In this document: positions 47,546 through 64,000 of the stretch, piece by piece
Position numbering within the stretch: the stretch's first letter is position 1
Layout: each line of letters begins with the position of its first letter
Assembly (NCBI GenBank): GCA_027024155.1
Contig: JALVTE010000076.1
Span: forward strand, 35,301-99,300
Direction of reading: 5' to 3'
Origin: Campylobacteraceae bacterium
GTDB lineage: Bacteria; Campylobacterota; Campylobacteria; Campylobacterales; Sulfurovaceae
DNA length: 64,000 nt
Program-made: the position numbers and the translations under genes
Notes under the pieces: model-generated
The model's database searches: none
What the model was told of the DNA's origin: nothing
The model's input: only the letters and a program-made list of their open reading frames with translations

Positions 47546-47791
47546 ATGACCAATACACAAAATAGCAGAATTACAGTAACTCTACCAAAATATATAAACG
47601 ACGAACTTGATGCTTCTAAAAAAGAGTTGGGCTATACAAAAACAGAGATAATAAAAATAGCAATAGAGAATTTCTTAGAAGAGCAAAAAAAAGCAAAACT
47701 CAAAAATGCCGTTGAATTAATGACTAATGAGTATCAAAACAATAAAGAGCTTACTGAGTTTACAACTTTAGATAGCGAAGATTTTCTATGA
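47546..47791 (+). CDS. ribbon-helix-helix antitoxin
   Basis: 81 aa. Has RHH-like ITVTLPKYINDELD...TKTEIIKIAIENFL and overlaps the toxin start by 4 nt. Confidence 0.7.
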   Translation: MTNTQNSRITVTLPKYINDELDASKKELGYTKTEIIKIAIENFLEEQKKAKLKNAVELMTNEYQNNKELTEFTTLDSEDFL

Positions 47792-48123
47792 AACAAAAAG
47801 AGATATGGCTAATAAACCTCGACCCAACAATCGGAGCCGAGATTAAAAAAACAAGACCCTGCGTAATTCTAAACAGTAACTTGATTGGCAAACTACCACT
47901 TAAAATTATAGCCCCAATTACAGACTTTAAAGCACAATACGAAACAGTACCATGGATGGTAAAACTAATCCCAAATAAAGATAACAATTTAACAAAACAA
48001 TCTGTAATAGACCTTTTTCAAGTACGCTCTGTTTCCGAAAAAAGATTAATTAAAAAGATAGGTACAATCAATAACGAAAACCTAAAAAAATGCAAAGAGG
48101 CACTAAACATAGTTTTCGATTAG
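47788..48123 (+). CDS. mazF: MazF/PemK family toxin (endoribonuclease)
   Basis: 111 aa. Has KQKEIWLINLDPTIGAEIKKTRPCVILN, typical of MazF/PemK. Confidence 0.8.
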   Translation: MKQKEIWLINLDPTIGAEIKKTRPCVILNSNLIGKLPLKIIAPITDFKAQYETVPWMVKLIPNKDNNLTKQSVIDLFQVRSVSEKRLIKKIGTINNENLKKCKEALNIVFD

Positions 48124-48148
48124 AAGATTCAGTATATTTTTACTATCT

Positions 48149-48469
48149 CTAGCACTCAAACTTCTGACATATATCTTTTAGAATCTTCTTAAAAGTTATA
48201 TCTTTTAAAGTAGCTATAATATTTTTATCAGATATTAAAGAGGAATCGATTGCCGTTAACTTTGGTACAATCACAACAGACTCTTTTTTTAATGAACCGG
48301 TTTCAATATCACTATTTGTAATAATAATACCATCTCTTTTTAAATTTGTTGTAAGGGGTAAAATTAGTAAATCATTTTTGTCTATCACTCTAAATACTAA
48401 TACAGGTCGTCCTTTAAACTGCTTAAAATCAGAATATGGCATCTCAATAAAATATATACCACCTACCAT
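48149..48469 (-). CDS. second PemK/MazF-like toxin
   Basis: 106 aa. Has GGIYFIEMPY...KGRPVLVFRV...ILPLTTN. Confidence 0.6.
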   Translation of the reverse strand: MVGGIYFIEMPYSDFKQFKGRPVLVFRVIDKNDLLILPLTTNLKRDGIIITNSDIETGSLKKESVVIVPKLTAIDSSLISDKNIIATLKDITFKKILKDICQKFEC

Positions 48470-48759
48470 TTGGAGTAATCCTCATTATCGTAATCATTTT
48501 TACTTAAGCCAATAGCAATTTTGCCAAAATTATCTAACTCTTTATCTTTCCAATATTCCCATTTTGAGTTATTGGATTCTTCTTCTATTCTCTTTAAACG
48601 ACTATACTCTTCTGTAGATAATACCACTACTTCTAAACGATTATTTTTCAAAATACCAATTTTTTCAATGCTATTGTTTTTAACATCTTTTAAAAGGGTA
48701 CTTATCTTCTTGGTAAAGTCAGTTATAGAAAATAGTTCATTTTCTGAATATTTAACCAT
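48463..48759 (-). CDS. Phd/YefM-like antitoxin
   Basis: 98 aa. Has an N-terminal FSITDFTKKISTLLKDV...VVVLSTEEYSRL and overlaps the toxin start. Confidence 0.55.
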   Translation of the reverse strand: MVKYSENELFSITDFTKKISTLLKDVKNNSIEKIGILKNNRLEVVVLSTEEYSRLKRIEEESNNSKWEYWKDKELDNFGKIAIGLSKNDYDNEDYSKW

Positions 48760-48782
48760 AATATTTATCCTTAAATTTACTA

Positions 48783-48828
48783 GTGTATTTAACTATAAAT
48801 ATACTACTATTTTCATAATTAAATACAC
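48783..48828 (-). promoter_or_regulatory. candidate operator/promoter of TA module 2
   Basis: 10-nt inverted repeat GTGTATTTAA ... TTAAATACAC, lying 24-70 nt upstream of the antitoxin ATG. Confidence 0.35.
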
Positions 48829-48989
48829 CTTAAGAAAAACTAATAAAAAATTCTTCTTTAACATCAGAACCTTGAAAGCCGTTAAATAAACAAGAACTGT
48901 TTCTTGTTTATAAGCTTGAAATCAAAGGTGTTGTCCTATAAAGACCACTGAAGGCAAGAGCATCCTCTACAAATTATACTTACACAATA

Positions 48990-49032
48990 GTATCCAACTC
49001 GTAGAGGCAATCCCTTGTGGTTGCCCACAAGT
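48990..49032. repeat. REP-like GTAG-hairpin unit (second copy)
   Basis: GTATCCAACTCGTAGAGGCAATCCCTTGTGGTTGCCC, in the same orientation as 47161-47203. Confidence 0.65.
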
Positions 49033-49147
49033 TCAAATTGCCTACAAAATATCAAAACAAATCAAATATTATATCCGCTTGAATTAGTAATTTTAGTCAA
49101 TAAGAAAACATTTACTATTACCATCACCAGACCCAACACTCTTTTTA

Positions 49148-49305: not shown

Positions 49306-51649
49306 AGCGAAGTCCCCTTAAATCGGGTGGGTTTTGTAATAAAAAATACTTTTGGAATGTAATTGAGGTGACTATTGTTTCAATCCCCTTAAATCGGGTC
49401 GGTTTTGTAATAGTGGATTGGCTAAGAATTAATAACTATTTTTTCTTTGGTTTCAATCCCCTTAAATCGGGTCGGTTTTGTAATGCTAAATGATAAGTTG
49501 CAGAGTATAGAGAAGTTGGTTTCAATCCCCTTAAATCGGGTCGGTTTTGTAATAAATTTGGAAAAGTAAACAAAGGAAAGAGAGTAAAGGTTTGTTTCAA
49601 TCCCCTTAAATCGGGTCGGTTTTGTAATACCCACATAAAGGCGAGCAAGGAGGGCTTAAATTCTGTTTCAATCCCCTTAAATCGGGTCGGTTTTGTAATA
49701 ATTATTGAGCTATTAGAAGGAAAGTTTAAATTGTTTCAATCCCCTTAAATCGGGTCGGTTTTGTAATCATGAAAAGAGTAATTGGGAGAGTTAGGTTTTA
49801 GTTTCAATCCCCTTAAATCGGGTCGGTTTTGTAATATACTCCATGTGAACCAGCACTACTAACATTAGCAGGTTTCAATCCCCTTAAATCGGGTCGGTTT
49901 TGTAATGTGCTTATTTTAGCAACCCATATCAACAGCTATTGTTTCAATCCCCTTAAATCGGGTCGGTTTTGTAATAATGTTATGTTGCAAAAAGAGACGA
50001 TACATTGATCAGTTTCAATCCCCTTAAATCGGGTCGGTTTTGTAATGGCATGTAGTGTCAAAAGCACCAAGAACATTTGTTAAGTTTCAATCCCCTTAAA
50101 TCGGGTCGGTTTTGTAATGCAGGATGGACTGAAATATCAGGAAAATTAATTTAGTTTCAATCCCCTTAAATCGGGTCGGTTTTGTAATTAAAAAGGTCAA
50201 TGTTTTAAGGATACAGCCAACATCGTTTCAATCCCCTTAAATCGGGTCGGTTTTGTAATTAGTGAAGGACTGATTGAAAAAGAGTTCTTTGAGAAGTTTC
50301 AATCCCCTTAAATCGGGTCGGTTTTGTAATTAATGTGCCTGATTGCTAATCAGTGGCTGGGTCAAGTTTCAATCCCCTTAAATCGGGTCGGTTTTGTAAT
50401 TTATAACATATAAAGATTATGTTTATCTTTATAGAAGTTTCAATCCCCTTAAATCGGGTCGGTTTTGTAATTAAGTGTGGTGAGGCATCTAAATTAGAAC
50501 TTGAGTGGTTTCAATCCCCTTAAATCGGGTCGGTTTTGTAATAAACATTGGGGAAGTCAGTATTGGTGGGTCATCGAGTTTCAATCCCCTTAAATCGGGT
50601 CGGTTTTGTAATTGATGGATTAGATAATGACGGAAAAGTGTCTAGGTTTCAATCCCCTTAAATCGGGTCGGTTTTGTAATTAATAGGCTCAAATTAAGGG
50701 ATTATTAAGCTGTTTCAATCCCCTTAAATCGGGTCGGTTTTGTAATGTTCCAAATAGACTCTCAAATGCACTATCACCTGGTTTCAATCCCCTTAAATCG
50801 GGTCGGTTTTGTAATATGATATATTGTATTATAAAAAGGATTTAATTAGTTTCAATCCCCTTAAATCGGGTCGGTTTTGTAATTTAAAAAGAGTAAGTTT
50901 TATACTTCATTAGAAAGTGTTTCAATCCCCTTAAATCGGGTCGGTTTTGTAATATATTGTAGATGGTAAAGGGGAAGAAGAAGGGCAGTTTCAATCCCCT
51001 TAAATCGGGTCGGTTTTGTAATAAAAGGCATAAATGAAAGTTTTAAGTTTATTTGTTTCAATCCCCTTAAATCGGGTCGGTTTTGTAATCTATTCAAAAA
51101 AAGATACAAAGGTTTAAAACCTTGTGGTTTCAATCCCCTTAAATCGGGTCGGTTTTGTAATAACATTGTGTGTCAGGAAATTGTTGATATAAAAAAGTTT
51201 CAATCCCCTTAAATCGGGTCGGTTTTGTAATTTAAAGTGCCTGCTGAAAAGCTAGAAGAATACCAGTTTCAATCCCCTTAAATCGGGTCGGTTTTGTAAT
51301 TTTATAGTGAGACTAGAATATGACAATGACTGGGTGTTTCAATCCCCTTAAATCGGGTCGGTTTTGTAATGTAGTGTATAATTAGGTATAACAAAATAGG
51401 AGTAGTTTCAATCCCCTTAAATCGGGTCGGTTTTGTAATGATAATGAGCTAGCTTGTTTCGACAAAGAAGCAGTTTCAATCCCCTTAAATCGGGTCGGTT
51501 TTGTAATCAAGCAAGGGATAGAAGCTAAGTTTAAAGTAGCCCGTTTCAATCCCCTTAAATCGGGTCGGTTTTGTAATTTAATTAAAATTAAGGTGTTCAG
51601 ATGAAACAATTATCGTTTCAATCCCCTTAAATCGGGTCGGTTTTGTAAT
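49306..51649 (-). CRISPR. CRISPR array: 33 apparently identical 35-nt repeats plus one degenerate terminal repeat, 33 spacers of 31-40 nt
   Basis: Plus-strand repeat: GTTTCAATCCCCTTAAATCGGGTCGGTTTTGTAAT. Repeat starts are 49376, 49449, 49519 ... 51615, with a period of 66-75 nt. The minus-strand reading ends in ATTGAAAC. The degenerate copy at 49306-49339 is at the end far from the cas genes. Confidence 0.97.
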
Positions 51650-51900
51650 AGTAACAATTAGTTGTTAAATAACCATTTCATCGGACTTTATTATAGGGCA
51701 AGTTTTCTTAAGTTTTGCTTTAATCTTCATAATTTGACTATTGTAAATATTTTAGTACAGTAATATGGGTATATCGATTTGATTAATAAGCTTAACTCAA
51801 TCTTAAATAAAATTAGATATTTTCCATAATATGGTATTAAATTAAAAAATCTGTATACGCATTTGAATTTTTTTATACAGAAACTTTATCTTTTTATTAT
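51650..51900 (-). promoter_or_regulatory. CRISPR leader (AT-rich), with candidate -10 TATAAT at 51690-51695 and a weak hairpin at 51851-51880
   Basis: 251-nt non-coding AT-rich stretch between the last cas-side ORF and the first repeat. Its position agrees with the repeat orientation and with the degenerate repeat lying at the opposite end. Confidence 0.6.
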
Positions 51901-52281
51901 TTATAGTGTATCTATCCCTGTTATATATTCATTTAAGTTATCTCTATTTCTATATAAAAAATCATATATTTTATATGCTTCGTATGCTTTTAGGTTTTCG
52001 TTACTTTTTTTATCGTATAAATAGCCATTTGAAGTTATAGCAATCTCTCTACTGTTGTAGTTAATTGTAGGGTAAATATCTTTATTAGGGTTTGGCTTTA
52101 AGTCGTCTCTTAGTTTATTTACGAAGTTGTAGTAGTTTCTACTTTTTTTGTTTGCTGTTTTTGGAGTCTGTTTTAAGTTTTGATTTATCTGCTTTAACTC
52201 TTTTAATATTGCAGTTAATAGTTCATTTGTTGTGTTGCTATCTGTGCTAAGTAGTTTTTCTATCTCATCTTGCAGTTTCAT
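51901..52281 (-). CDS. hypothetical protein between cas2 and the leader
   Basis: 126 aa with a strong SD (AAGGAG-N4-ATG), 9 nt after the cas2 stop. No family recognised. Confidence 0.55.
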   Translation of the reverse strand: MKLQDEIEKLLSTDSNTTNELLTAILKELKQINQNLKQTPKTANKKSRNYYNFVNKLRDDLKPNPNKDIYPTINYNSREIAITSNGYLYDKKSNENLKAYEAYKIYDFLYRNRDNLNEYITGIDTL

Positions 52282-52290
52282 AATACTCCT

Positions 52291-52563
52291 TTATAAAAAA
52301 TTGTATGGTTGCTCTAAGTTAATTGCAGATGCTAATTTTATTCCACTGTTTTTTATGTTATATACCCTTATGTCATCTTCGTTTTCATTGTAAATTTTTA
52401 ATATATTATCTAGTAGAGTTTGTAATTCATCTTTTGTGCTATTTGGGAGAAGAAAAATAGAAAATTGTATTCTTATTGCCTCTTTCTCTAGCAATTTTGC
52501 AATTTTACGAAGCCGTTTTATATTGGCTATGTCGTAGCTTATAATAAAATCATATCTGTTCAT
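52291..52563 (-). CDS. cas2: CRISPR-associated endoribonuclease Cas2 (copy b)
   Basis: 90 aa. Has the Cas2 ferredoxin-fold pattern, FIISYDIANIKRLRKIAKLLEKEAIRIQFSIF. Confidence 0.8.
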   Translation of the reverse strand: MNRYDFIISYDIANIKRLRKIAKLLEKEAIRIQFSIFLLPNSTKDELQTLLDNILKIYNENEDDIRVYNIKNSGIKLASAINLEQPYNFL

Positions 52564-52801
52564 CTGTTGGCTCTTTTAACTCTGCTTTTACATATCCATT
52601 GTGGTCTATAAAATAGATAGGAGCTATCTTTAACAACTCTATAAAAATAGTTATAGGTATTTTTACATCTCTATTTATATAAAGCTCTTTAATGAACTTT
52701 TTAGCTACTACTATATTTTCACTAGATTTTATAATTTCTATGTACTCTTTAGCCAATTTTATTTTAGCTTTTTTATCGTTTATTAGGATAATTTTCTTCA
52801 T
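52550..52801 (-). CDS. small ORF resembling a Cas1 N-terminal domain
   Basis: 83 aa. By eye, KKIILINDKKAKIK...KELYINRDVKIPITIFIELLKIAPIYFIDHNGYV aligns with the adjacent Cas1 N-terminus (IVIIDKKEAEIK...TIIIEGKTTLQTQDINRLSKNGISIILL). It overlaps both neighbouring genes. Confidence 0.35.
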   Translation of the reverse strand: MKKIILINDKKAKIKLAKEYIEIIKSSENIVVAKKFIKELYINRDVKIPITIFIELLKIAPIYFIDHNGYVKAELKEPTDEQI

Positions 52802-53661
52802 AACATACTCCTAATTAGAGTTATTGCATTTGTTATTTTTGTATCTAGTTGGGCTTGAAACTCTTGAAAATAGGGATATATACTTTTTCTATCTTCATAT
52901 TTTAAATATACTGCATCTCCTTTTTTTGTAAAACTCTCTTTGCTTAATAAGTTATTATTAAATAGTGTAAAAATAAATTGGTTAATATCTGCTCTAATAA
53001 CTTCTAGTATATCTGAAGATAGAGCATTATGGTCTCTAAATGGTCGATGCAGATAGCCAATATTTGGCTCAAATCCACTGGCTATTAGTTTAACTGTAAT
53101 AGTATGATAAAATATAGTATATAGCCACGACATAACAGCATTTAGCGGGTCTTTTGGAGGGCGTTTTGTTCGCTTATTGTTATGTAGATTTTTTGGAAAA
53201 AGTTTAAAATAGTGGCTAAAATATAGTTTAGAAAAACTACCCTCTATACCCAAAAGTTCATCTAAAGTTTTAGCACTGTTAATATTTTGCATATATCTTG
53301 ATTTGTTTAAGATGATATTGTGCTCTTTCAAATGAAGTATGTGAGCGTTTATTTTAATTTTAAGTAACTCTTTAGCTATGTTTGTTGGTTTTAGAGAAGC
53401 TCTATATTGTGAAATTTTTAAATTTGCATTTTTATTATTGTATGCACTTATAATAGATGCTACATACCTATTAGATTTTAGTAAAATTATACTAATTCCA
53501 TTTTTGCTTAAACGATTAATATCTTGTGTTTGTAGAGTTGTTTTACCCTCTATAATTATTGTATCGATTAAGTTAAATGGTATTTTTTGGGTGTTGATAA
53601 TTAACTGGCTTGTTGTTGTTTTGATTTCTGCTTCTTTTTTATCTATTATTACAATATTCAT
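52798..53661 (-). CDS. cas1: CRISPR-associated endonuclease Cas1
   Basis: 287 aa. Has LGIEGSFSKLYF, KRPPKDPLNAVMSWLY and GYLHRPFRDHNALSSDILEVIRADI, the E/H/D-E catalytic pattern. Confidence 0.9.
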   Translation of the reverse strand: MNIVIIDKKEAEIKTTTSQLIINTQKIPFNLIDTIIIEGKTTLQTQDINRLSKNGISIILLKSNRYVASIISAYNNKNANLKISQYRASLKPTNIAKELLKIKINAHILHLKEHNIILNKSRYMQNINSAKTLDELLGIEGSFSKLYFSHYFKLFPKNLHNNKRTKRPPKDPLNAVMSWLYTIFYHTITVKLIASGFEPNIGYLHRPFRDHNALSSDILEVIRADINQFIFTLFNNNLLSKESFTKKGDAVYLKYEDRKSIYPYFQEFQAQLDTKITNAITLIRSML

Positions 53662-53924
53662 ACTATTATCAACCCTTGATTAAATTTAATAAAATCTGCC
53701 CTACCAAAACATATAGGTTCATTATTAAATGGAATTATATTTATCTTATCCTCTTCTTTTATGACTCGCAATAGTTTAGATATAAGCTCTTTTAACTCTT
53801 TTTTACTAAGAGGTGCTTCTAGTGCACTTTTTTGCCCACCTAGTGCATAGGCATAGACAATTTTACGAACCCTGTATAGGCGTTTTTTATCAAAAATATC
53901 GTAGCATATTAAATAGTTTTGCAT
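53658..53924 (-). CDS. cas2: CRISPR-associated endoribonuclease Cas2 (copy a)
   Basis: 88 aa. Has YLICYDIFDKKRLYRVRKIV...GGQKSALEAPL and an ATGA overlap with cas1. Confidence 0.8.
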   Translation of the reverse strand: MQNYLICYDIFDKKRLYRVRKIVYAYALGGQKSALEAPLSKKELKELISKLLRVIKEEDKINIIPFNNEPICFGRADFIKFNQGLIIV

Positions 53925-53966
53925 TATAATACTCTGCTCAAGTATAGATAGTTCATACCTACCTCT

Positions 53967-54338
53967 TTACGGATTATAAATATCTTGATTAAACTCATAA
54001 TCATCATTATCACAAAAGCTATCATAATCACAAGGGTCGTAACTATTTGAATATGGATTTTCATACTCACTATAGTAGTCATCGTCGTCATCATCAAAAT
54101 AGTTATCGAAATCATCTTCGATATCCTCATCTTTATAGCTAGAGTTACAAGAGTTGTATCTATCTTTATCCCAACCTGTGTTACCCTCCCAGTATCTTCC
54201 GTTACGTTCTATTGCAGTAAAGTAAGCTTCTGGGTCATGCACAACTTCTCCATACGGAGTGTACCAAGTATTACCAATTTTAGTAGGAGTCTTTCTCCAA
54301 GGATAACGATCACTAGATTCACCAAACCAATAACCCAT
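53967..54338 (-). CDS. hypothetical Trp/Tyr-rich protein with strongly acidic Asp/Tyr/Asn tail
   Basis: 123 aa with a strong SD (AGGAGGA-N4-ATG). The C-terminal half reads DEDIEDDFDNYFDDDDDDYYSEYENPYSNSYDPCDYDSFCDNDDYEF. Confidence 0.6.
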   Translation of the reverse strand: MGYWFGESSDRYPWRKTPTKIGNTWYTPYGEVVHDPEAYFTAIERNGRYWEGNTGWDKDRYNSCNSSYKDEDIEDDFDNYFDDDDDDYYSEYENPYSNSYDPCDYDSFCDNDDYEFNQDIYNP

Positions 54339-54540
54339 AACATCCTCCTAAAAATTTTATTAAGAAATTATAAGATATTCTTTAGATAAAAACTGTCTAG
54401 TTTAGTTTGTTTTTGAAGATATTATTATTTTATGGAGCATCTGCACTCTATTTATGTTTTTAAAGAAGTTAAAATACAAACGCAAATAGAGAGAGTAAAA
54501 CAAAATTAAACTCTGTCCTACTAAATTTTTGTAAACTCTT

Positions 54541-54690
54541 TTAACTCCTCAAAAGCTCATTTAATTTATAAGGCTTAATATCAAGCTCAAACACAGAGTA
54601 ATTTACTCTAAACCCGTAGCCCTCTAAAAGAGTGGCTACTTTATTTCGCTTTTTTGTGTTGCTGATGTCGTAGGTTATTAGGGTTTGCAT
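54541..54690 (-). pseudogene. cas2: truncated cas2-like ORF (49 codons, N-terminal half only)
   Basis: Own translation: MQTLITYDISNTKKRNKVATLLEGYGFRVNYSVFELDIKPYKLNELLRS*. Its ATG shares one nucleotide with the TAA of the upstream RAMP gene (TAATG). It is not in the ORF track. Confidence 0.65.
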
Positions 54691-57161
54691 TAGTTTAGTA
54701 AACTATTGAACTTATCTTGCCCTAGCCATTTAATCATTAATTTACTACTTTTATTAAACTGTTTCTTCTTCTTAGCATTTAAAGTAGGATAAATTTTCTT
54801 AATTGCCTCTTCAAGCTCCTTCTTATCGTTATCCGTAGGGTTTTGAATAGATTTTATAACTCTTTCAATGCTTTTACCATCTTTAGCTTGAGAAAATTCT
54901 AACCTTTTATTATCAGTCTTAGTTACTGAGGTTCCACACATATTTTCTAACTCTTTTGTAGCATCAATAACTTTTGGAGAGTTTGGATAATCTTCTATAA
55001 ATTTCTTTAAAGCATCTTTTAAGTATTTAGAGTTACTTGGATGATGAATCTTTTCCCACTTGGTATTTGCCTCTTCTTGATTTTTTTGATTTTCTATATC
55101 TTGTATCTCATCTTTTATAATTTTAATTGCATCATTAACTTTCTCTTTTTCTTCCAAAGTTAATTCACTTTTTAAAAGGTTTTCAAGAATTTGAATATTT
55201 TTAGTTTTTTTTGCATTATTTAGATTATTTAAAAATTTTATTTTCTTATCTTCTAACTCTTTAATTTTTTTTCTTTTATCTAAAACTTCTGGTGTTAAAA
55301 GTGATACTGGATAGTTATTAGATATATCAAACATTTGACTAACTTTAGGTAGACAGTCTCTACCTACATATTCCTTATTTATCTTTTCATTTTTTGCATC
55401 TACAAATTCATTTATATTATTTTCAGGGTCTAGTTTTAAATATTTAAGTTTATTGTCTATATTTAAATCTTTAAATGACATTGTAAAAAGTTCTTTGATT
55501 TGTTCTGTTTCTAACCATTTCTTTTTTAACTTTTCAGTTGTCCACTCTTGCATTAATATTTCAAATTCTTGTAAAGCATCAATGTATTTAGAAGTATCTA
55601 AATCAATTTTTATTTTTCCAAATCCAAGTGATTTAGCCATACCTATATTGTGATAAAAGTTATTATGATTATTATGAAAAGTAAGTGCAGAAATTAATGC
55701 TCCTAATTCTGCTTTATTAAGGTTATGAAATCTAACTTTTCCACTAAAAGTAAACTCATTAAAATTATTTTTATTATATGTTCCAATAGGTGTAAATGTA
55801 GTAGCAGAATCTGTCTCTTCGTCCACTTTTGTAAATTTTGGTTTACCATATCTTAATGGATATCTTTTCCAACCTGCTATTTTAGCTGTTTTATCCATAA
55901 GGGTATTGTATTTATCATTCTGTACTTTTCCATTCTCTTTACAGTTTTGTTGTATATATTCAGGATAAAAAGATGAATTTGGGCTTCCGAGTATAGTTGT
56001 AATTCTTTCAAATTCTTTCGGATTTGAATTGCATTTAAAATGAGAAAATTGTACTCTACCTTTTAATGTACAATTTACTTTTTTAGATTTATTATCTTTT
56101 GTAATTTCTTCTTGAATTGCACCAAATATACTCTCTGTTAAATCTAATTTTTGGTATATTCTTTGTGCACCACTAACTGTTTTTGTTACTGTTTCGATAA
56201 TCTGTTTAGTAGCATCGTCAATAGTATAATTATATGCTAGTTTGAACAGCTGACTAAGTCCTATATCTGTAATATTATTATTTTTGTCCTTAATATAAAA
56301 TATTGGTATTCCTATATTTTCATCAACATTATTTTTCCAAAAACTTCCATCTACTGAGTCTGAGTTAAAATAAACATCTATAAACTTTGATACTGCTTTA
56401 TCAATATTTCTAATTAGATTTTCTTTTCTATCACTATTAGCAAAGACAAATTCATTTTTTTTGTTATCTATTCCACCAGTAAGTATTAAATACGCCTCTT
56501 CGCCATTATTTGAAACAGTTGCAATATTTTTCTTGCCAATTACTTTACCTTCGCTATTTGTTAAATCTTTAATATCTTTAATAACATTAATTATTGGATA
56601 CATACCATTTGATTCATACTTATCTTTTGCTGTATCAAAATCACAATTTATTGTTGTGTTACCAAATTCAATTATTTTATCAGTTTGGTTTGTGTATTCA
56701 ATAGTTCTTGGTTTTCCATAGTCTATAATTATCCACTCTCCATTAGTATCTTTTTTTAAAAACCCACATCCTTTAGCTGTACCGACTAACTGTTTTGAGT
56801 TTGTCATATCTCTAACAGATGTTATTTTTGTATGTTTCTTAGTATCTAATTTTAATTTTCCAAAACTCATAATTTCCAATACATTACGAACCATACCTTT
56901 TACAGAACTTCCAGGAATATAATATTGTCCCTTATGGTTACAAAATTCTGTAGAAATCATATTACCATTATTGTCTATATAATATTTATCTCCATTAATT
57001 TCATGATTACGAATAAATATAGGACTTTTAGCTGTTATAGTAATATCTATAACCCCACTTTGACTATCACTAAAAGGAACATCATGACTTACTTGTTCCG
57101 ACCAATCAGGGAACAATATCTTATCACTTAACGGTACAAAATTAAATGGTGCTGTTATCAT
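54690..57161 (-). CDS. large CRISPR-associated RAMP (Cas7-like with insertion; TIGR03986-like 'APxNFVPL' family) with ~300-aa C-terminal extension
   Basis: 823 aa. Has the N-terminus MITAPFNFVPL, the RAMP motif IPGSSVKGMVRNVLE and the Gly-rich loop SLGFGKIKI, followed by a Lys/Glu/Asn-rich tail. SD is GGAG-N7-ATG. Confidence 0.7.
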   Translation of the reverse strand: MITAPFNFVPLSDKILFPDWSEQVSHDVPFSDSQSGVIDITITAKSPIFIRNHEINGDKYYIDNNGNMISTEFCNHKGQYYIPGSSVKGMVRNVLEIMSFGKLKLDTKKHTKITSVRDMTNSKQLVGTAKGCGFLKKDTNGEWIIIDYGKPRTIEYTNQTDKIIEFGNTTINCDFDTAKDKYESNGMYPIINVIKDIKDLTNSEGKVIGKKNIATVSNNGEEAYLILTGGIDNKKNEFVFANSDRKENLIRNIDKAVSKFIDVYFNSDSVDGSFWKNNVDENIGIPIFYIKDKNNNITDIGLSQLFKLAYNYTIDDATKQIIETVTKTVSGAQRIYQKLDLTESIFGAIQEEITKDNKSKKVNCTLKGRVQFSHFKCNSNPKEFERITTILGSPNSSFYPEYIQQNCKENGKVQNDKYNTLMDKTAKIAGWKRYPLRYGKPKFTKVDEETDSATTFTPIGTYNKNNFNEFTFSGKVRFHNLNKAELGALISALTFHNNHNNFYHNIGMAKSLGFGKIKIDLDTSKYIDALQEFEILMQEWTTEKLKKKWLETEQIKELFTMSFKDLNIDNKLKYLKLDPENNINEFVDAKNEKINKEYVGRDCLPKVSQMFDISNNYPVSLLTPEVLDKRKKIKELEDKKIKFLNNLNNAKKTKNIQILENLLKSELTLEEKEKVNDAIKIIKDEIQDIENQKNQEEANTKWEKIHHPSNSKYLKDALKKFIEDYPNSPKVIDATKELENMCGTSVTKTDNKRLEFSQAKDGKSIERVIKSIQNPTDNDKKELEEAIKKIYPTLNAKKKKQFNKSSKLMIKWLGQDKFNSLLN

Positions 57162-57550
57162 TTTTCATCTCCTTGTGCAAATCCTGCAAAAACTACTTTT
57201 TTTAACTTTTTAACTAGCATATCTTCGCAAAGTTCATCACTCTCTTCTTGCCAGATTTGTTCCATTTTTACTTTGTTGCCTGCAATGCCATAGAATTTTT
57301 GAATTTCGATATTTTTTAATGAACCTCTATCTACAGCCCAACTGTTATTTGATTGTTTTATTGTTATGTATTCATTCTCATTAGCAAAGTGGGCTTCGTA
57401 AATAAAGCCAATTTCGTTATCTACTTTTGGGTCGTTATCTGTAAAAATATCTTTTGCTAAGTCTAAAGGTCTATTAGAAAACTGTACATAGCCTCTAAAG
57501 CCTTTTAAATTATTTATGTAATCTATAACCTCATCTCTATTTAATCTCAT
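57158..57550 (-). CDS. small type III-D accessory subunit (Csx19/all1473-like, tentative)
   Basis: 130 aa counted from the ATG at 57548-50, which is preceded by GGGGAGGTG. The ORF-track start at 57565 lacks an SD. The call rests on position (between the Cas7 genes) and size; the family assignment is from memory only. Confidence 0.45.
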   Translation of the reverse strand: MRLNRDEVIDYINNLKGFRGYVQFSNRPLDLAKDIFTDNDPKVDNEIGFIYEAHFANENEYITIKQSNNSWAVDRGSLKNIEIQKFYGIAGNKVKMEQIWQEESDELCEDMLVKKLKKVVFAGFAQGDEK

Positions 57551-58856
57551 ATAGCACCTCCCCATTTTTATCTAATTTACCGCTAAAAATTCCGTGTCCT
57601 TTTGTAGTTAGTCCACCTAATGCAAGTTGCCCTTTGCAAATGTCTGTTAAAGCATTTTCAAAAACTTCTATATACTCTTTATCTATATTTTTATTTAAGA
57701 TAATCTCTAAGGTATATTCTCTATCATCTGCAATAGTTTTTTCTTGAAATAGAGCCCCCTCTATTGCACCGCCAGTAAAGCGGTCTATACTAACATGGTC
57801 AAATACTTTTGTAGAATCTTTATCTTCCATAAAGCAATCACTTATATAGATATTCCCTTTTTGCCCAAGCTCATTTTTCTCTTTTAACTCTTTTTTATGA
57901 CCAAATATTGCTTTTATTGCTTCGTTATTTTCTCCTACAATATCTTCTAGCTTTTCAAAGCCTTCTTTTTTATCGGCATATCTTTTTTGCTTTAAGTTAT
58001 AATAAAATGCCGTTCTATGAGATACTGCACCTTTAATGGAAGTTGCAGGTATTAAAATTTTTCTTTTACTTAATGCATGTTCGTTGTAGTCAATTTCCTC
58101 TTCGTAAACTGGTGTCATATCTGCATCTTCATCGCCAAAGCCACTACCAAAAATAAAGAAGTCATCAGGTTTTAGTTTTAGGGTATATTTATTATACTTA
58201 TCGTAACTATCTAACTTTTTATCTGCTTTTGTAGCACTATCTATTAAAGAGTTTAAACTACTAGAGTAGCTTTTAAGTTCATCTATATTTTTAATCTCTA
58301 AAGTAGCTATATCATGCACTTTAAAACTTCCAAAACCTGCTGTGGTTTTTCCACCAAATCTAAATAGAGGATTGCTTAAAATCTCTATGAGTTCATCAAA
58401 GGCCTCTTTGTTGTCTATAACTTCTATTGCAAATCTAAAACGACTACCTTTATATACAACTTCTTGGTCAAACTTGCTACTCTCCCGTGCAACCCCTTTA
58501 TGTGTTATTGCGGTATGCTCTCTTATAGGTAGAGTTTCAAATAACTTTAAAAAACTATTTTTTTCTACCAAAAGCCCTTCATTTACTCTATTGTCTTTAT
58601 CTACCAAAAGAGCATTAGAGATAATTACTTTAGAGCCTTCCCCATCATCTTCTCTACCATTTTGATAACCAAAAATATTTTTATCTTGGCTATATAAGCT
58701 TCTTAAAACTCCTGCTATAGATGTACCTAATATCATAGGCAGAGAGTTAAAATCTCTTTGTACAGGTGCATCTTGAAAAAAGTCGCTATTTCCACACCCA
58801 ACTCTTAATGGTGTTTGTGCTTCTATTGTAATGTGTGCAATATATCTATTTTGCAT
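57537..58856 (-). CDS. fused double Cas7 (two Csm3/Cmr4-like RAMP domains)
   Basis: 439 aa. Domain 1: PLRVGCGNSDFFQDAPVQRD...ILGTSIAGVLRS...GGKTTAGFGSF. Domain 2: IPATSIKGAVSHR...IDRFTGGAIEGALF...LGGLTTKGHGIF. Confidence 0.75.
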   Translation of the reverse strand: MQNRYIAHITIEAQTPLRVGCGNSDFFQDAPVQRDFNSLPMILGTSIAGVLRSLYSQDKNIFGYQNGREDDGEGSKVIISNALLVDKDNRVNEGLLVEKNSFLKLFETLPIREHTAITHKGVARESSKFDQEVVYKGSRFRFAIEVIDNKEAFDELIEILSNPLFRFGGKTTAGFGSFKVHDIATLEIKNIDELKSYSSSLNSLIDSATKADKKLDSYDKYNKYTLKLKPDDFFIFGSGFGDEDADMTPVYEEEIDYNEHALSKRKILIPATSIKGAVSHRTAFYYNLKQKRYADKKEGFEKLEDIVGENNEAIKAIFGHKKELKEKNELGQKGNIYISDCFMEDKDSTKVFDHVSIDRFTGGAIEGALFQEKTIADDREYTLEIILNKNIDKEYIEVFENALTDICKGQLALGGLTTKGHGIFSGKLDKNGEVLYEIK

Positions 58857-60225
58857 TTTTGCCTCCTCTATCTTGAGCTTTTGGCATCTCTATTGCTACT
58901 AGCATTATAAAGTTTAAATCATTATTTAGTAGTGTTTCTTGTTGGGTTTTGCTCCATTTAGCTTTACCACTAGATATATATTTTTCTATCTCTTCTTTTT
59001 TATTTTCAAAACTACTTAAGCATATAGAGCGAATTGTTCCCCATTGTGAGTTTTTTATATCTTTATATAGAGGGATATTTTCATTGATAAATTGATATAC
59101 ACTATCAACTAAATCTAGTTTATCCAATCTGCTATTGTGCTTTGCTTTTAAGTAGTTTAAAGTATTGTCTGAAAATTCTACTTCTATTTTGCCTATTGAC
59201 TCTTTTTTATTTTTCTCTTTTTTGGGTAGCTTTATCTCTGATTCTAAAAGAAATTTTGGATTTATTAACAAATCGCCAAAACCTTCGCTTAAAAATAGAC
59301 CAACACCCTCTTTTAACTTCTCTTTTTGCTCTGAAGTTAAATTTTTTAATACAATTACACTACCTTTGTTTATAACTACTCTCTCAAATGTATGTGTTCT
59401 CATTGTATTGTTATATTGTCTATAGTTGCTTGTTTTTACCTGCATAGCTTCATATGCAATATTCTCTTTTGTTAATCCGTTAATTAAGTGTATTGGGTCA
59501 AGAGTTGGGTTTCCAGTTTCATCAATTAATGCTAATCTACTGTTTGCGTAAATATATGTTAAATTATCACTCTTTGTGCTTTCAATATTTTTTGTATTAT
59601 CTTTTGCTTGAGTAATTTTAACTTTACCATATTCGGAACTTTTAGATTTACCAAGTCTTGTAGAGTTTTCTAAAGTATCAATAATAAGTTTTATATCATC
59701 ATCTTTTATAGAGTTATCTACTTTTACTTTAAATTGCCACTTTAATCCTTTTGGCATAGCCTTATAGCCGAACATATTACCTGTTTTGCTTCTTCTTCGT
59801 TTTTTATCGTGGCTACTCTTTTGAGAATAGTTATATCTAATTTCATATAAATTTAATCCACTAGAAGTGTCAGCGTCTATGAATCCTTTTCTTAACTGCT
59901 TAAGTTGTCCTAAATTTTTATTTATTAAATGATGGTTATAAACATAAGCCTCTTCATTCTCTTTTAAAAGCTTTTTCTTAAAGTAAGAGTATGGTGTTTT
60001 GTAATATAGCTTATTGTTAATTAATAAATTTGCATCCATAAATCTAACTAAACCGCTATGGAATATATTAAAACTATCGCTAAAATCTTTATATCTTTTA
60101 GCTACCATTCCCAAGAAATTACTACCTGGAATAAACTCTAAAGGCTCTATGTTTCCTTCGGTATTAGAGCTAGCTTGTAGTACTATATCACTTAAAAACT
60201 CTATATTAAATATTAATTCTTTCAT
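58846..60225 (-). CDS. csx10: Csx10-like (Cas5-group) RAMP with helical C-terminal region
   Basis: 459 aa counted from the ATG at 60223-25 (AAGGAGG SD; TAATG overlap with the upstream gene). The N-terminus reads LEFIPGSNFLGMVAKRY. The last ~110 aa look alpha-helical. Confidence 0.55.
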   Translation of the reverse strand: MKELIFNIEFLSDIVLQASSNTEGNIEPLEFIPGSNFLGMVAKRYKDFSDSFNIFHSGLVRFMDANLLINNKLYYKTPYSYFKKKLLKENEEAYVYNHHLINKNLGQLKQLRKGFIDADTSSGLNLYEIRYNYSQKSSHDKKRRRSKTGNMFGYKAMPKGLKWQFKVKVDNSIKDDDIKLIIDTLENSTRLGKSKSSEYGKVKITQAKDNTKNIESTKSDNLTYIYANSRLALIDETGNPTLDPIHLINGLTKENIAYEAMQVKTSNYRQYNNTMRTHTFERVVINKGSVIVLKNLTSEQKEKLKEGVGLFLSEGFGDLLINPKFLLESEIKLPKKEKNKKESIGKIEVEFSDNTLNYLKAKHNSRLDKLDLVDSVYQFINENIPLYKDIKNSQWGTIRSICLSSFENKKEEIEKYISSGKAKWSKTQQETLLNNDLNFIMLVAIEMPKAQDRGGKNAK

Positions 60226-60785
60226 TATGCCTCCTTTGCCGATATACGGCATCTTCCAAGTCCTCGGTTTCTATTTAAGCCTACTCGTTTAATCATCTCT
60301 AAAGTTGATTTAACTTGCTCAAGATACTTTTGTGGAATATTTTCTATACTTCCAGATAACACTATTGGAACAACAACTTCTATCTCCCTTAAAGAGTTAT
60401 CTTTTGCAATCTTTTTCTCTTCATCTATACTTGTGGATGTAATAATTTCGTATAAGCTATCTTGCATATTGTGTTTAACTATCTCTTTTGCAATATCATC
60501 TTTTATACTTGCATTAGAAAAATAGCACTCTCCTTCTGTCTGCTTATAATTTTCATCATAACAATTATCTTTATCATCGCTACTGCCACCAAAACATATA
60601 TTTACAAAATCGCAATCTTTAAAATATTCAGCCACCTCTCTAGCTAAACCTTTTATAGTTTTACCTGGCATATATGGAAGATTGTTATTATCTTTAATAA
60701 CCATATTATCTAGTTTTGCACCTGCACTTAAGCCTGAACTTATATGCCAATAGTCTAAAAACTCTATTGTATATTCTATTCTCAT
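60225..60785 (-). CDS. small RAMP protein (Cas7/Csm3-like)
   Basis: 186 aa. Has SGLSAGAKLDNMVIKD...PYMPGKTIKGLAREV and a C-terminal VGLNRNRGLGRC Gly-rich loop. Confidence 0.65.
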   Translation of the reverse strand: MRIEYTIEFLDYWHISSGLSAGAKLDNMVIKDNNNLPYMPGKTIKGLAREVAEYFKDCDFVNICFGGSSDDKDNCYDENYKQTEGECYFSNASIKDDIAKEIVKHNMQDSLYEIITSTSIDEEKKIAKDNSLREIEVVVPIVLSGSIENIPQKYLEQVKSTLEMIKRVGLNRNRGLGRCRISAKEA

Positions 60786-62185
60786 TTTAGCTCCTCTGCT
60801 ACCGATAAAATTTGTAAAACATCATAAATTGGGGTATAGTAATTAGAATCATCTCTCTTTACAAGTAAGTTTTGACTAGACAATTTACTATCAACTCTTT
60901 TTAAAGCTTTGCTCACAATATCCCAGTTATCATCGTTTTTAGAGATTTGATTAATTCTATTTAATAATTTATTTGCATAAGCTTCGTTTTTGTGTAACTC
61001 TCCAATCCAATTTCTTAATTTACTTATTGGTGAATTATCTTGTTTGTAGAAAGATACTACTACTCTAAAGTCATTAATTTTAGGAGCTTTATCTAAATAG
61101 TATGGAGCAAAAGAGAACTTTATTGTTTTATCTTTATGGTATGCTGTTAGTTCATCTTCTTCAAACTTTTCCCAACTTTGAAAATTAGAGCTTTGGATAT
61201 TGTGAAAAATTATACAAGACTTCTCTCTTTTTGATTTATCTTTTGCTTCAGAACATAACTCTTCGGCAAGAGATACTGCATAGTGGAATGGATATTTGTC
61301 GTTACAGTATGCAATACCGGCACACGCTGTTAATTTATCTGTAAGTCCTTTTAATTCATCAATTTTAGAGGTATTCTCTTCAAAATTTTCTAAATATTTT
61401 TGTATAAAATCTAAAGCAACATCGGCATTGCATATTACAGTTAAATCATCTCCTCCCAAAATTGCTTCTCTTATTTTATCTTCGTAACCTTCTGAAGCTT
61501 TTTCGAAAGCCTCATTTGTGGCATCATCCAATTTTTTTGAGAATGAACTAATTTTACTTTTTAGCAATGGAACTAACTGTCCTAAACCATTACCATCTGC
61601 ATGAATTACTGCTATTTTATTCTTGTTATTTGATAGATTAGATATATCTTTTATCTCTTTATACGATGGATTCTCTTTTCTTTTATTATTAAACCAATTA
61701 CTATACTTTTCTTGTTTTTGTGAAGTTGATACATCAAGTTTTTCAGTCCGTTTTACATAGCTATATAGAGGTCTTGCCGTTTTGGGTGCCTGCTCTAATA
61801 TAGATATACCTAAATCCAAAGGAATAGTTGGCTTATTTCTTTGGATTTTTAAGTTATCATCTAATTTTTTGTAATCATCTTTTGTTATATCTTCTTTATT
61901 ATTTATCTCAACAACAGCTTGTGATATTGTAATACCATAAGCATTTTGCATTACATATTTTGTAAAATCTTTTACAAGTTCTTGCATCTGCTCTTTAGTA
62001 TCAAATAGAGCTTTAAAATTACCTGCTGCATTTAATATTATCTTATCCCTACTCCCAACATAATCTTCAAATTTTTTCTCTAAACTTTTAATAATTTCAC
62101 TTGCCCCAACAATATCTCTTAATTGATTGGTAGCAAAAATATACTCCTGTATCGCTTGGATACTAGCACCATATAAATATGCCAT
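60782..62185 (-). CDS. cas10: minimal Cas10 (no HD domain, GGDD palm motif present)
   Basis: 467 aa. Starts directly with the palm-type GASIQAIQEYIFATNQLRDIVGASEII. Also has IHADGNGLGQL, ILGGDDLTVIC and ACAGIAYCNDKYPF...AEELCSEAK. Only 15 nt separate it from the cas6 stop. Confidence 0.8.
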   Translation of the reverse strand: MAYLYGASIQAIQEYIFATNQLRDIVGASEIIKSLEKKFEDYVGSRDKIILNAAGNFKALFDTKEQMQELVKDFTKYVMQNAYGITISQAVVEINNKEDITKDDYKKLDDNLKIQRNKPTIPLDLGISILEQAPKTARPLYSYVKRTEKLDVSTSQKQEKYSNWFNNKRKENPSYKEIKDISNLSNNKNKIAVIHADGNGLGQLVPLLKSKISSFSKKLDDATNEAFEKASEGYEDKIREAILGGDDLTVICNADVALDFIQKYLENFEENTSKIDELKGLTDKLTACAGIAYCNDKYPFHYAVSLAEELCSEAKDKSKREKSCIIFHNIQSSNFQSWEKFEEDELTAYHKDKTIKFSFAPYYLDKAPKINDFRVVVSFYKQDNSPISKLRNWIGELHKNEAYANKLLNRINQISKNDDNWDIVSKALKRVDSKLSSQNLLVKRDDSNYYTPIYDVLQILSVAEELK

Positions 62186-62200
62186 TTATCTTCTCCTTTA

Positions 62201-63028
62201 TTAGTTTAATTCCTCAATCTCAATCTTCCCAAGCCCCATTACGGTTTGTTTGCCGACTCCTATTAGTTCGCCTAGTTTAAGTAGGCGGTAGCTCTCTTTG
62301 TCTATGTTGTTTACTGCCATTTCGCCTATTAAGCCATCTATGTTTAGAATTTGCTTTTGGCGGTTGCTTTTTCGTTTTAGCTGTTTATATTGTAAGAGTT
62401 TAAGAGTTGTGCCGATTTCTGGGGTGTAGTTTAGTTTATGTACTTTTACACCACTGTTTAACTCTTGCTCTCTTTGGTATATAGAGCGTAAAATGTCTTG
62501 TAACTCCAAATTTTCTCTTAAAAGTCTGTTTTGTTTTTTTATTCTAAGAGGTGTGAGTAATTTTATCTTAACATTTGGACAAAAGCTGTCGATTTTAAAG
62601 GCTTTTGGCTCTATTTTTAAATCTTTAAACTCTTTGTTGCTATAAATAGTTGTTTTATTTACTAAAATTTCTAAATTTTCAAATGTTAAGTTATCTTTAC
62701 CAACGCCATTTTGGGTTAGCATAGTGTGTAGGGCACTTAAAATATATGGTAACTCTTTTGTTGCTTCGTTAAATAGATATAGTCCAAAGTTGTAATTATT
62801 GCTATCTAATTTTACATCGAAACGAAAGGGGTGATAGTTGTTTTGTTTTTCGTAGAAACTGTAATATAAGCAGTTATCTTTTGCAAAACATCCTTCGCAT
62901 TTATAGCTTGGGTTTATGCAGGTTACTTTTTTGAGTGCATAACCAAAAGCTCCACGAAGCATAGAGCCTGTAAAAAAAGGTGGCTTATCTTTAGAATTTA
63001 CTTTTACTTCGATATAATGGTATTTCAT
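62201..63028 (-). CDS. cas6: Cas6-family pre-crRNA endoribonuclease
   Basis: 275 aa counted from the ATG at 63026-28 (MKYHYIEVKV). Has GSMLRGAFGYAL, a Cys cluster CxxxxxxxCxxC, and a C-terminal Gly-rich loop GVGKQTVMGLGKI. Confidence 0.65.
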   Translation of the reverse strand: MKYHYIEVKVNSKDKPPFFTGSMLRGAFGYALKKVTCINPSYKCEGCFAKDNCLYYSFYEKQNNYHPFRFDVKLDSNNYNFGLYLFNEATKELPYILSALHTMLTQNGVGKDNLTFENLEILVNKTTIYSNKEFKDLKIEPKAFKIDSFCPNVKIKLLTPLRIKKQNRLLRENLELQDILRSIYQREQELNSGVKVHKLNYTPEIGTTLKLLQYKQLKRKSNRQKQILNIDGLIGEMAVNNIDKESYRLLKLGELIGVGKQTVMGLGKIEIEELN

Positions 63029-63236
63029 TTCTATGCCTATTAATAAAATTGTATTATAGTAACATATTATATATGTGAAATTTATCAAATAGTAGCAATA
63101 TACTTATAATAATTTATAATTTAGTATTATTGCTACATTTTCTTTGCTATTTTAACTAAAGTTACACACTACCCTAGATAGATGGTTTAAAACTTGAAAC
63201 TTTTTCTATGGATTGAGAAGCAACCTATATATATTT

Positions 63237-63647
63237 TCAAGAGCGTATTAAGATAATATATAATAACATTAAAACTATTATCACTACCGGTATTATTAAA
63301 GCGCCTAACTCTATCCAGTTTAATTTTTGATGTTGATACTCTTTATCTTTTGACTCTAAAATGAGTAAAAAAATCATAGATATTGGGAAAGTGATTATAG
63401 TTAGCAGCATTCCTAATTTCATTCTACCAAATGCATCTCTAACTCTTTTTACAGTAGATGTTAAAAAAATCCATATACTCACAAGGTAGCCTAATAGCAT
63501 TATAATTATTGCTAATATTGGTAATGGTTTTAAAAGCATATACATAACAACATAAAAAGCAATATATGCATATATTGGTAGAAAATGACCATAGAGTAGA
63601 TACCTAAGTCCTGATATTCTACCCTTGAAACTAAAAATGTTTATCAT
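63237..63647 (-). CDS. DUF805-like inner membrane protein
   Basis: 136 aa. Has FSFKGRISGLRY...VKRVRD and four hydrophobic helices. Confidence 0.55.
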   Translation of the reverse strand: MINIFSFKGRISGLRYLLYGHFLPIYAYIAFYVVMYMLLKPLPILAIIIMLLGYLVSIWIFLTSTVKRVRDAFGRMKLGMLLTIITFPISMIFLLILESKDKEYQHQKLNWIELGALIIPVVIIVLMLLYIILIRS

Positions 63648-63656
63648 AAATTCACC

Positions 63657-64000
63657 TTACATTCCCAAATTGTACTGTTTCCAGATTTTGCCACACACTT
63701 TAGCACCTTCTTTATATCCTTCTTTCAGAATCTCTTTAGCTTTAGAAATTTTCTTCTCTTTAATATACAATTCGCCTAAAGCACATTTTGCTACAATACT
63801 ACCATTATTAATAGCTATATTATAATACTTTTCTGCACTACTGGCATCTTGTAAAGTTCCTAAACCATTTGCGTACAAATAAGCCAATCTCAATGCAGAA
63901 TTGTTAGTAATATCTTTTATTGCATTTAATTCAAGAGCTTTTTTATAATTCTCTATTGCTTGTTCGTAATCAACTTTTATCTGTTTATGAACAAAATAAT
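63657..64000 (-). CDS. Sel1-like repeat protein (C-terminal part; N-terminus beyond window end)
   Basis: The frame is open to position 64000. It shows the Sel1/TPR-like pattern A..YYNIAINNGS..A...LG.LY... Confidence 0.55.
   Translation of the reverse strand, partial: YFVHKQIKVDYEQAIENYKKALELNAIKDITNNSALRLAYLYANGLGTLQDASSAEKYYNIAINNGSIVAKCALGELYIKEKKISKAKEILKEGYKEGAKVCGKIWKQYNLGM

Follow-up and report, generated by a model that had tools for sequence, protein, structure and literature searches.

A type III-D Cas10 lacking an HD domain in a Campylobacteraceae bacterium and the linked genes that are likely to read its signal

Which protein reads the messenger of a Cas10 that keeps a cyclase-type palm site, if no sensor appears to be encoded beside it? 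This question is raised by a type III CRISPR locus in a stretch of 64,000 nucleotides from a Campylobacteraceae bacterium (contig JALVTE010000076.1), which as a whole is termed the window in the following, and more precisely by the open reading frame (ORF) at 60782-62185 on the minus strand, which lies directly downstream of cas6. A preliminary description of this locus had pointed out that the encoded Cas10 possesses no HD domain, that it retains motifs used for the synthesis of cyclic oligoadenylate (cOA), and that no cOA-sensing effector is encoded nearby; it concluded that the signal goes to an effector that is unlinked or has escaped recognition, or else that the palm serves some other purpose. 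We think that neither proposal is supported, as recognisable cOA-sensing genes are linked to the locus just off the window. Very likely, the protein is the Cas10 of a type III-D cOA-signalling complex that is read by linked effectors encoded past the window end. The window breaks off within a Sel1-repeat gene, about 0.9 kb upstream of cas6, and as the effectors are encoded just past this point, the puzzle of the missing sensor is an artefact of the window edge.

The format of the Cas10 had been described correctly. The TAA stop codon of cas6 is followed by only 15 nt (taaaggagaagataa), which include an AGGAG ribosome-binding site, before the ATG of cas10, so that there is no space for an N-terminal HD domain. 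Indeed, neither Pfam nor NCBIfam detects an HD domain in the protein, and in the alignment with homologues its sequence matches the start of Palm1 from residue 2 onwards. The second palm domain is recognised by the Pfam model Cas10-Cmr2_palm2 (PF22335; 65.5 bits, cut-off 27), and the PADLOC model Cas10d aligns with residues 1-465 over profile positions 1-438 of 441 (E 2.6e-154). The closest solved structure is the type III-Dv Cas10 of Synechocystis (PDB 8S9T_C), which is found with an E value of 4.5e-27 by the single sequence and of 2.6e-41 by a family profile. The same chain ranks first in a Foldseek search (E 4e-25, template modelling (TM) score 0.77) with an AlphaFold2 model that was built on 46 homologues (pLDDT 83.5, pTM 0.85), and it is followed there by Csm1/Cmr2 chains at E values of about 1e-13. 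Many Cas10s of III-A and III-B systems carry an HD domain, but III-D does not require it, and its absence here is unremarkable: in a survey covering 1,113 type III loci, just 3% of the III-D Cas10s had this domain (PMC11229360). A protein search returned 3,013 Cas10 homologues at E <= 1e-10, the best 120 of which have 455-512 residues, and judged by these sequences the short HD-less format is the standard of this Cas10 family.

The catalytic motifs are preserved as well. Translation confirms the sequences IHADGNGLG and GGDDL, and among the 46 aligned homologues H195, D197, G198, N199, L201 and G202 of the first motif are invariant, as are G245, D246 and D247 of the second, while G200 varies in one sequence. 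The stretch HADGNGLG is identical to that in the HADGNGLGQ of the Synechocystis protein, and GGDDL aligns with its GGDDLTVIC. From its position and motif, the IHADGNGLG loop would be the counterpart of D286/G287...G291 in the III-D2 Cas10 (PMC13294483). GGDD occurs in 118 and HxDGNG in 116 of the best 120 of the 3,013 homologues. The protein is a genuine Cas10 with an intact and strongly conserved cyclase-type palm site. This conservation bears on the possibility that the palm is silent and purely structural, and that the complex acts by Cas7 RNA cleavage alone as in type III-E. Some subtypes, namely III-C and III-F, have lost cyclase activity (PMC11229360), but with the metal-binding and GGDD residues invariant in the 46 homologues and kept in 116-118 of the best 120, and with cOA sensors and a ring nuclease co-encoded, we give this possibility hardly any credence.

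Concerning the effector, the claim of the preliminary description stands for the window itself and fails directly beyond it. When all ORFs of at least 70 aa in the window were scanned with PADLOC, Pfam and NCBIfam, none matched Csm6, Csx1, CARF, SAVED, NucC, Can or CorA, and a tblastn search with the effectors of related loci found no copy in the window. Genes for Csx20, a CARF-HEPN Csx1 and a Csx23-like protein are however present 1.7-5.0 kb past position 64000 on contigs that overlap the window end (working labels L005 and L024). L005, which was found via an exact protein match to the DUF805-like ORF next to cas6, matches the final 925 nt of the window with 100% identity and extends 3.5 kb beyond them. 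L024 is a 23-kb metagenome scaffold that was found via the 186-aa Cas7; it is 99.90% identical to positions 51599-64000 of the window (12,402 nt with 10 mismatches and 1 gap), retains this identity to the last base of the window and continues for 6.8 kb beyond it. Altogether five independent contigs (L005-L009) agree across the window end, with 98.7-100% identity to each other over the junction and 99.5-100% identity to the end of the window. Both L005 and L024 continue with the Sel1 gene (259 aa) and a lipoprotein gene (162 aa), after which a divergent operon follows on the opposite strand. On L024 this operon encodes, in this order, an HD protein, Csx20, a 458-aa Csx1, a WYL/WCX regulator, a 39-aa ORF and a 148-aa protein, and then LysE and UvrA follow; in window coordinates the operon would be at about 65.1-69.0 kb. 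A CARF or SAVED effector just outside the window had been named in the preliminary description as the observation that would speak against its claim, and the CARF-HEPN Csx1 on L024 is such an effector.

The identification of these genes rests on matches of different strength. Csx20 reaches 160.2 bits with the NCBIfam equivalog model NF040559 (cut-off 70) and an E value of 7e-47 with the PADLOC Csx20 model. Characterised Csx20 is a ring nuclease specific for cyclic tetra-adenylate (cA4) and occurs almost solely alongside cA4-dependent effectors (PMC12409355). The 458-aa protein is matched along its entire length by the PADLOC model CARF2--CARF_HEPN (E 7.5e-101) and is also recognised by the Csx1/Csm6 model (E 2.6e-27), and its DxTHG domain scores 29.1 bits, above the cut-off of 21, while the match to Pfam Csx1_CARF is under the cut-off. 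Its C-terminal HEPN domain contains the motif RNNLAH (Rx4H), of which R400, N401 and H405 do not vary in an alignment of four homologues that includes the equivalents from three relatives, so that the protein fits the Csx1/Csm6 make-up of an N-terminal CARF domain and, at the C-terminus, a HEPN domain bearing an Rx4-6H motif. A search of the PDB with the single Csx1 sequence gave no match, but a profile built from this alignment found the solved “CRISPR-associated protein” 8Y75 over both domains (E 2.7e-12). The 148-aa protein possesses two N-terminal hydrophobic helices (residues ~3-25 and ~36-54), as does Csx23 of the Vibrio III-B system (PDB 8QJK; PMC11014256), and in a phmmer search its residues 66-146 align with the whole C-terminal domain of that protein over 80 residues (E 7.5e-4, 22.8 bits). 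The cA4-binding residues R95, R110 and F111 of Vibrio Csx23 align with the sequences FSR and RY and are thus kept as R, R and Y, and tyrosine is a documented substitute for F111 (PMC11014256). The similarity to the Vibrio protein is low, and the protein belongs to a III-D instead of a III-B system and is encoded together with Csx1 and Csx20; because the match score is weak, membership in Csx23 is probable and not certain. Csx23 is rare, as the published survey of 1,113 loci recorded it in just 4 of them (PMC11229360), and the locus joins three cA4-linked accessory genes with this rarely seen type among them. Csx23-like membrane proteins accompany this III-D Cas10 family at L024:1764-2210 and again at L027:11415-11792.

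As the neighbouring contigs stem from metagenomes, it could be argued that the source genome of the window does not carry the operon of L024 and L005 at all, and that the signal reaches an unlinked effector or one of the genes in cis that the preliminary description had put forward, namely the acidic 123-aa ORF, the 126-aa ORF or the C-terminal tail of the Cas7-insertion protein. Such orphan signalling would agree with the lack of an effector within the window, with the exchange of accessory genes between near-identical loci, and with the 133 cyclase-positive, nuclease-deficient loci without known effectors that were counted in surveys (PMC11229360). We nevertheless regard it as highly unlikely, given that the near-identity of L024 extends to the very end of the window and takes in the adaptation module with both small ORFs, and that five independent contigs agree across the window end. 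Furthermore, the proposed genes in cis make poor candidates. Although the 123-aa and 126-aa ORFs are genuine and recur in other loci, no family model recognises them, and their distribution follows that of cas1 and cas2 and not that of cas10: they track the adaptation module and are absent from the loci L010 and L011, which are 98.2% identical to the window over the effector genes (96% for the Cas10 protein). The tail does not match a family in Pfam or NCBIfam, and its reading as an effector is not supported. Linked effectors past the window end thus remain the preferred explanation, and in this respect the locus does not pose a new mechanistic question. Its main value is as a caution, as a window that is cut 0.9 kb upstream of cas6 was enough to produce an apparently “orphan” signalling Cas10.

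Gene identities, the conservation of the catalytic motifs and the physical linkage on L024 are observed here, and how the system would work can be outlined from characterised homologues, on which the proposed enzymatic activities and the choice of cA4 as messenger are based. The effector complex would be composed of Cas10, Cas7, the Csx10-like Cas5, Cas7-2x, the CHP04423 protein and the Cas7-insertion protein, and would carry a CRISPR RNA (crRNA) matured by Cas6. Pairing of the crRNA with a foreign transcript would induce Palm1 and Palm2 of Cas10 to polymerise ATP to cOA, most probably cA4. As this Cas10 is without an HD nuclease, immunity would rest on the cOA signal together with RNA cleavage by the Cas7 subunits. 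The cA4 would switch on the CARF-HEPN Csx1 as an RNase and probably also the Csx23-like two-helix membrane protein, and the ring nuclease Csx20 would turn the signal off again; the WYL/WCX regulator and the small putative HD phosphohydrolase are co-encoded. That III-D systems act mainly via cOA signalling has been stated on the basis of a locus survey (PMC11229360), and the study of the III-Dv structure agrees (PMC11026444). In the latter study it could be shown by experiment that the HD-less Cas10 of Synechocystis responds to target RNA with the formation of cOA and the activation of Csx1, and that mutations of the palm abolish this (PMC11026444).

Several points speak against this reading. 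The activity of this Cas10 family is predicted by analogy with the characterised homologues. The accessory genes are outside the window, and their place in the source genome is deduced from near-identical metagenome contigs. The score of 22.8 bits for the Csx23-like protein is weak. The accessory content also differs between close strains, and the Csx1 of L010 and L011 is just 32% identical to that of L024. Finally, the acceptor pocket predicted in Palm1 departs from that of canonical cOA synthases, with S8 and Q10 at the places where these have Asp and Ser.

This last point bears on which product the Cas10 makes. In Csm1 of L. lactis the triphosphate of the acceptor ATP is held by D253 and S255, which together with K379 are the III-A acceptor residues (PMC13294483), and S8 and Q10 of the Cas10 in the window appear to be located at the positions of D253 and S255. 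They are part of the sequence YGASIQAIQ, for which the family consensus is YGASVQGIQ; YGAS(V/I)QGIQ is nearly invariant, and the consensus is found in 97 of the best 120 homologues. In an alignment that is anchored on the GxQxFIF motif and is not structural, S8 and Q10 coincide with E7 and S9 of the Synechocystis Cas10, a proven cOA producer. The Cas10 encoded on the plasmid pPP6 of Persicobacter psychrovividus has S8 and N10 there and is linked to csx20 and a CARF gene.

The unusual pocket could fit a different messenger, namely the conjugate of S-adenosylmethionine (SAM) and AMP, SAM-AMP, as in III-D2 and in the III-B system of B. fragilis: the palm would join ATP to SAM, and a membrane channel would open in response to the signal. 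The III-D2 Cas10 of Gammaproteobacteria bacterium HyVt-522 is likewise HD-less and starts directly in Palm1, and it shares with the Cas10 in the window the Asp...GxDx palm site and with its locus the Cas7 insertion domain (PMC13294483); moreover, membrane proteins are encoded nearby, and the pocket is without the Asp and Ser by which L. lactis Csm1 binds the triphosphate of the acceptor. The III-D2 system differs, though, in its Cas7x3 and Cas7-5 fusions and in the acidic pair, which is D347/E348 there and D246/D247 here. Its products are SAM-AMP and SAM-AMP2, and its signalling partner is CorA with a VapBC module; such partners were not found in the window or among the scanned genes of the extension. 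PADLOC and Pfam recognise no CorA, NrN or SAM-AMP lyase in the window, and none is present among the scanned genes or listed Pfam families of the 6.8-kb extension, of which the 39-aa ORF, LysE and UvrA were not scanned individually. As in addition all recognisable accessory genes (Csx1, Csx20, Csx23-like) are cA4-related, we think that SAM-AMP is extremely unlikely to be the messenger; also, the closest solved relative makes cOA (PMC11026444), and the Persicobacter Cas10 with S8/N10 goes along with csx20 and a CARF gene.

A cOA-signalling III-D complex is thus the most plausible assignment, and the nearest known system is III-Dv of Synechocystis sp. PCC 6803 (CRISPR2 of pSYSA; PDB 8S9T/8S9U; PMC11026444). 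It shares with the window the HD-less Cas10 with both palm motifs, which is the best match in sequence and structure, the downstream order of Cas7-2x, small subunit and TIGR03986 Cas7-insertion protein, and signalling by cOA to a Csx1-type RNase, as proposed for the locus in the window. The two Cas10 proteins are however only ~28% identical, and that of Synechocystis is about 90 aa longer due to an insertion in Palm1. In Synechocystis the first Cas7 is fused to Cas5-Cas11, whereas it is a separate 186-aa protein in the window; the small subunit is Csx19 there and CHP04423 here; and in the window cas6 precedes cas10 on the same strand, which distinguishes it from the III-Dv locus. A closer match in gene order is the III-D locus of P. 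psychrovividus pPP6 (NZ_AP025298.1), which contains cas6, cas10, a small RAMP, an unnamed protein, a double RAMP, TIGR04423 and TIGR03986 in the same succession, followed after the effector operon by csx20 and a TIGR02221 (csx2) CARF gene. Its Cas10 opens with FLYGASVNGIQ, similar to the Palm1 motif of the family in the window, at an overall identity of 32%. In contrast to the divergent upstream operon of the window locus, the accessory genes of pPP6 are directly downstream, and the plasmid carries another adaptation module and a primase-polymerase gene.

Coordinates of the cas10 motifs, of the other genes and features of the locus, and of the accessory genes on scaffold L024. Ranges without a prefix refer to the window.
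Feature	Position	Strand	Basis
CRISPR array: 33 perfect 35-nt repeats and 1 degenerate terminal repeat	49306..51649	-	repeat analysis
Adaptation module: acidic 123-aa ORF, cas2, cas1, 83-aa ORF, cas2, 126-aa ORF	51901..54338	-	Cas1/Cas2 Pfam matches
Cas7-insertion (TIGR03986 RAMP), 823 aa	54690..57161	-	TIGR03986 283.8 bits (cut-off 161), residues 5-554
TIGR04423/CHP04423 small type III protein	57158..57565	-	NCBIfam TIGR04423 46.7 bits (cut-off 40)
Cas7-2x, double RAMP fusion, 439 aa	57537..58856	-	Pfam RAMPs E 1.5e-39, two stretches
Csx10-like Cas5 with C-terminal extension, 468 aa	58846..60252	-	BLASTP, weak TIGR02674
Stand-alone Cas7, 186 aa	60225..60785	-	Pfam RAMPs E 2.6e-15
cas10, HD-less type III-D large subunit, 467 aa (Palm1, Palm2, C-terminal helical domain)	60782..62185	-	Pfam, PADLOC, PDB, AlphaFold2/Foldseek
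GGDDL motif of Cas10 (residues 244-248), catalytic acidic pair D246/D247	61442..61456	-	translation
IHADGNGLG loop of Cas10 (residues 194-202), first metal-binding Asp D197 of Palm2	61580..61606	-	translation
Palm1 N-terminal motif YGASIQAIQ of Cas10 (residues 5-13), predicted acceptor-nucleotide pocket	62147..62173	-	alignment
cas6, longest ORF 295 aa	62201..63088	-	Pfam CRISPR_Cas6 E 2.9e-12
DUF805-like membrane ORF	63237-63647	-	between cas6 and off-window accessory operon
Sel1-repeat gene, 3' part, cut by window end	within 63237..64000	-	between cas6 and off-window accessory operon
Csx23-like protein, 148 aa	L024:1764-2210	opposite strand to cas genes	8QJK match
WYL/WCX regulator	L024:2385-3341	opposite strand to cas genes
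Csx1, 458 aa	L024:3351-4727	opposite strand to cas genes	PADLOC, DxTHG
Csx20, 126 aa	L024:4736-5116	opposite strand to cas genes	NF040559, PADLOC
HD protein, 161 aa	L024:5178-5663	opposite strand to cas genes

The remaining genes of the effector operon agree with the III-D assignment in that Cas7-2x and the TIGR03986 Cas7-insertion protein are both present. The hallmark of III-Dv, the single Cas7-Cas5-Cas11 fusion, is absent, with Cas7 and Cas5 being separate ORFs. The 186-aa Cas7 is the equivalent of the Cas7 domain at the N-terminus of the Synechocystis fusion (BLASTP to residues 4-53, E 2e-12), and the 468-aa Cas5-type protein matches residues 250-474 of the same fusion (BLASTP, E 8e-14), whereas its match to the Csx10 model TIGR02674 is well under the cut-off of 177 bits (24.9 bits, E 1e-5). 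PADLOC Cas5_IIId models match within the locus. Since the two ORFs match separate parts of the fusion, the locus is, by its sequence relationships, an unfused variant of the III-Dv layout. It can be seen as a further example of a common III-D branch of uncultured Campylobacterota, in which the layout with unfused Cas7 and Cas5 stands between III-D1 and III-Dv. Cas7-2x also matches the NCBIfam models for Csx7, gRAMP and Csm3. The CHP04423 gene occupies the place of Csx19 in the III-Dv operon, and BLASTP finds no similarity of its product to the Synechocystis Csx19. The Lys/Glu-rich C-terminal tail of the Cas7-insertion protein mentioned above comprises ~270 aa (residues ~555-823, window 54690-55500). 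At 680-688 aa, the homologues in L025 and L027 fall short by an amount similar to the size of the tail, as judged from protein lengths. The longest cas6 ORF opens at a TTG, while in the relatives, with cas6 called in L010, L013 and L024, a protein of 275 aa is called from the ATG at 63028. Gene callers do not use the TTG start, and accordingly the 295-aa sequence had no exact match among known proteins, whereas Cas10, the DUF805-like protein and the 186-aa Cas7 each had one.

The adaptation block of the window is also present in L018, L019, L022 and L024, and its 123-aa, 126-aa and 83-aa ORFs are not recognised by any model of Pfam, NCBIfam or PADLOC. L010 and L011 possess instead a cas2 gene and a fusion of reverse transcriptase and Cas1 (RT-Cas1; L010:17502-19974 and L011:11910-14382); their resemblance to the window ends at ~54532, so that the adaptation module appears as a swapped segment (51901-54532 on the side of the window). 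The CRISPR repeat, read on the minus strand, ends in ATTGAAAC, and the degenerate repeat is at the 49.3-kb end of the array.

The accessory operon of close relatives varies around a constant beginning. At the same place as the operon of L024, L010 and L011 encode the HD protein, Csx20, a 439-aa Csx1 and then WYL/WCX genes. The contigs L004 and L013 from Nitratifractor metagenome-assembled genomes have HD and Csx20 in the same position and stop before any Csx1 position, and L025 encodes a 401-aa protein with an RNxxxH motif that is related to the CARF gene of pPP6, together with a WCX gene. The Csx1 genes of L024 (3351-4727) and L010 (5759-7078), which encode proteins of 32% identity, stand beside HD and Csx20 genes with ~96% protein and 98.4% DNA identity, and this difference between the effector and its neighbours suggests that the effector was replaced by recombination within the accessory operon.

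The stand-alone HD protein, of the HDIG type, always comes first in the accessory operon of close relatives, directly upstream of csx20 (L024:5178-5663, L005:1886-2371, L010:7529-8014, L011:1938-2423, L004:930-1415, L013:440-925). It most resembles the HD region of CCA-adding enzymes (E 4e-10) and weakly matches the HD models of Cas3 and Cas10, and a search against PDB sequences gave no match. One may speculate that it is a working part of this HD-less system. In view of its resemblance to CCA-adding enzymes, it could finish the breakdown of the A2>P intermediate after Csx20, or it could serve as a nuclease in trans that replaces that of Cas10; separately, S8/Q10 in the Palm1 pocket might shift the product spectrum. 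We consider this extended scheme rather unlikely. In relatives with ~53% Cas10 identity, genes with a Fic domain are inserted into the effector operon on either side of the CHP04423 gene (L025:14541-15308 and 15684-16466; L026:14794-15576).

Further candidates in the window were considered and rejected. A defence island at 1-38 kb was suggested by PADLOC matches to MzaA, mad2/3/8, AriA and IetA, and these do not indicate a defence system: the MzaA match is RpoD (6728-8593), the mad3, mad8 and AriA matches are an ABC-F ATPase (10255-11847), and the ORF at 30883-32097 has just weak generic IetA/mad8 matches. The DUF805-like ORF was dismissed as an effector; it has no PADLOC match and is missing in L010 and L011, where a different 115-aa protein is found.

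Two toxin-antitoxin pairs of the MazF/PemK type are located between the CRISPR array and polA, one consisting of a ribbon-helix-helix (RHH) protein and MazF (47546-48123, plus strand) and the other of a MazF-like protein and Phd (48149-48759, minus strand). They were rejected as analogues of the VapBC module of III-D2, as no evidence ties them to the cas genes. A 62-nt direct repeat that contains a hairpin brackets both pairs, with one copy at 47162-47223 and the other at 48990-49051 (0 matches are expected by chance), and the region 47162-49051 looks like a small inserted cassette.

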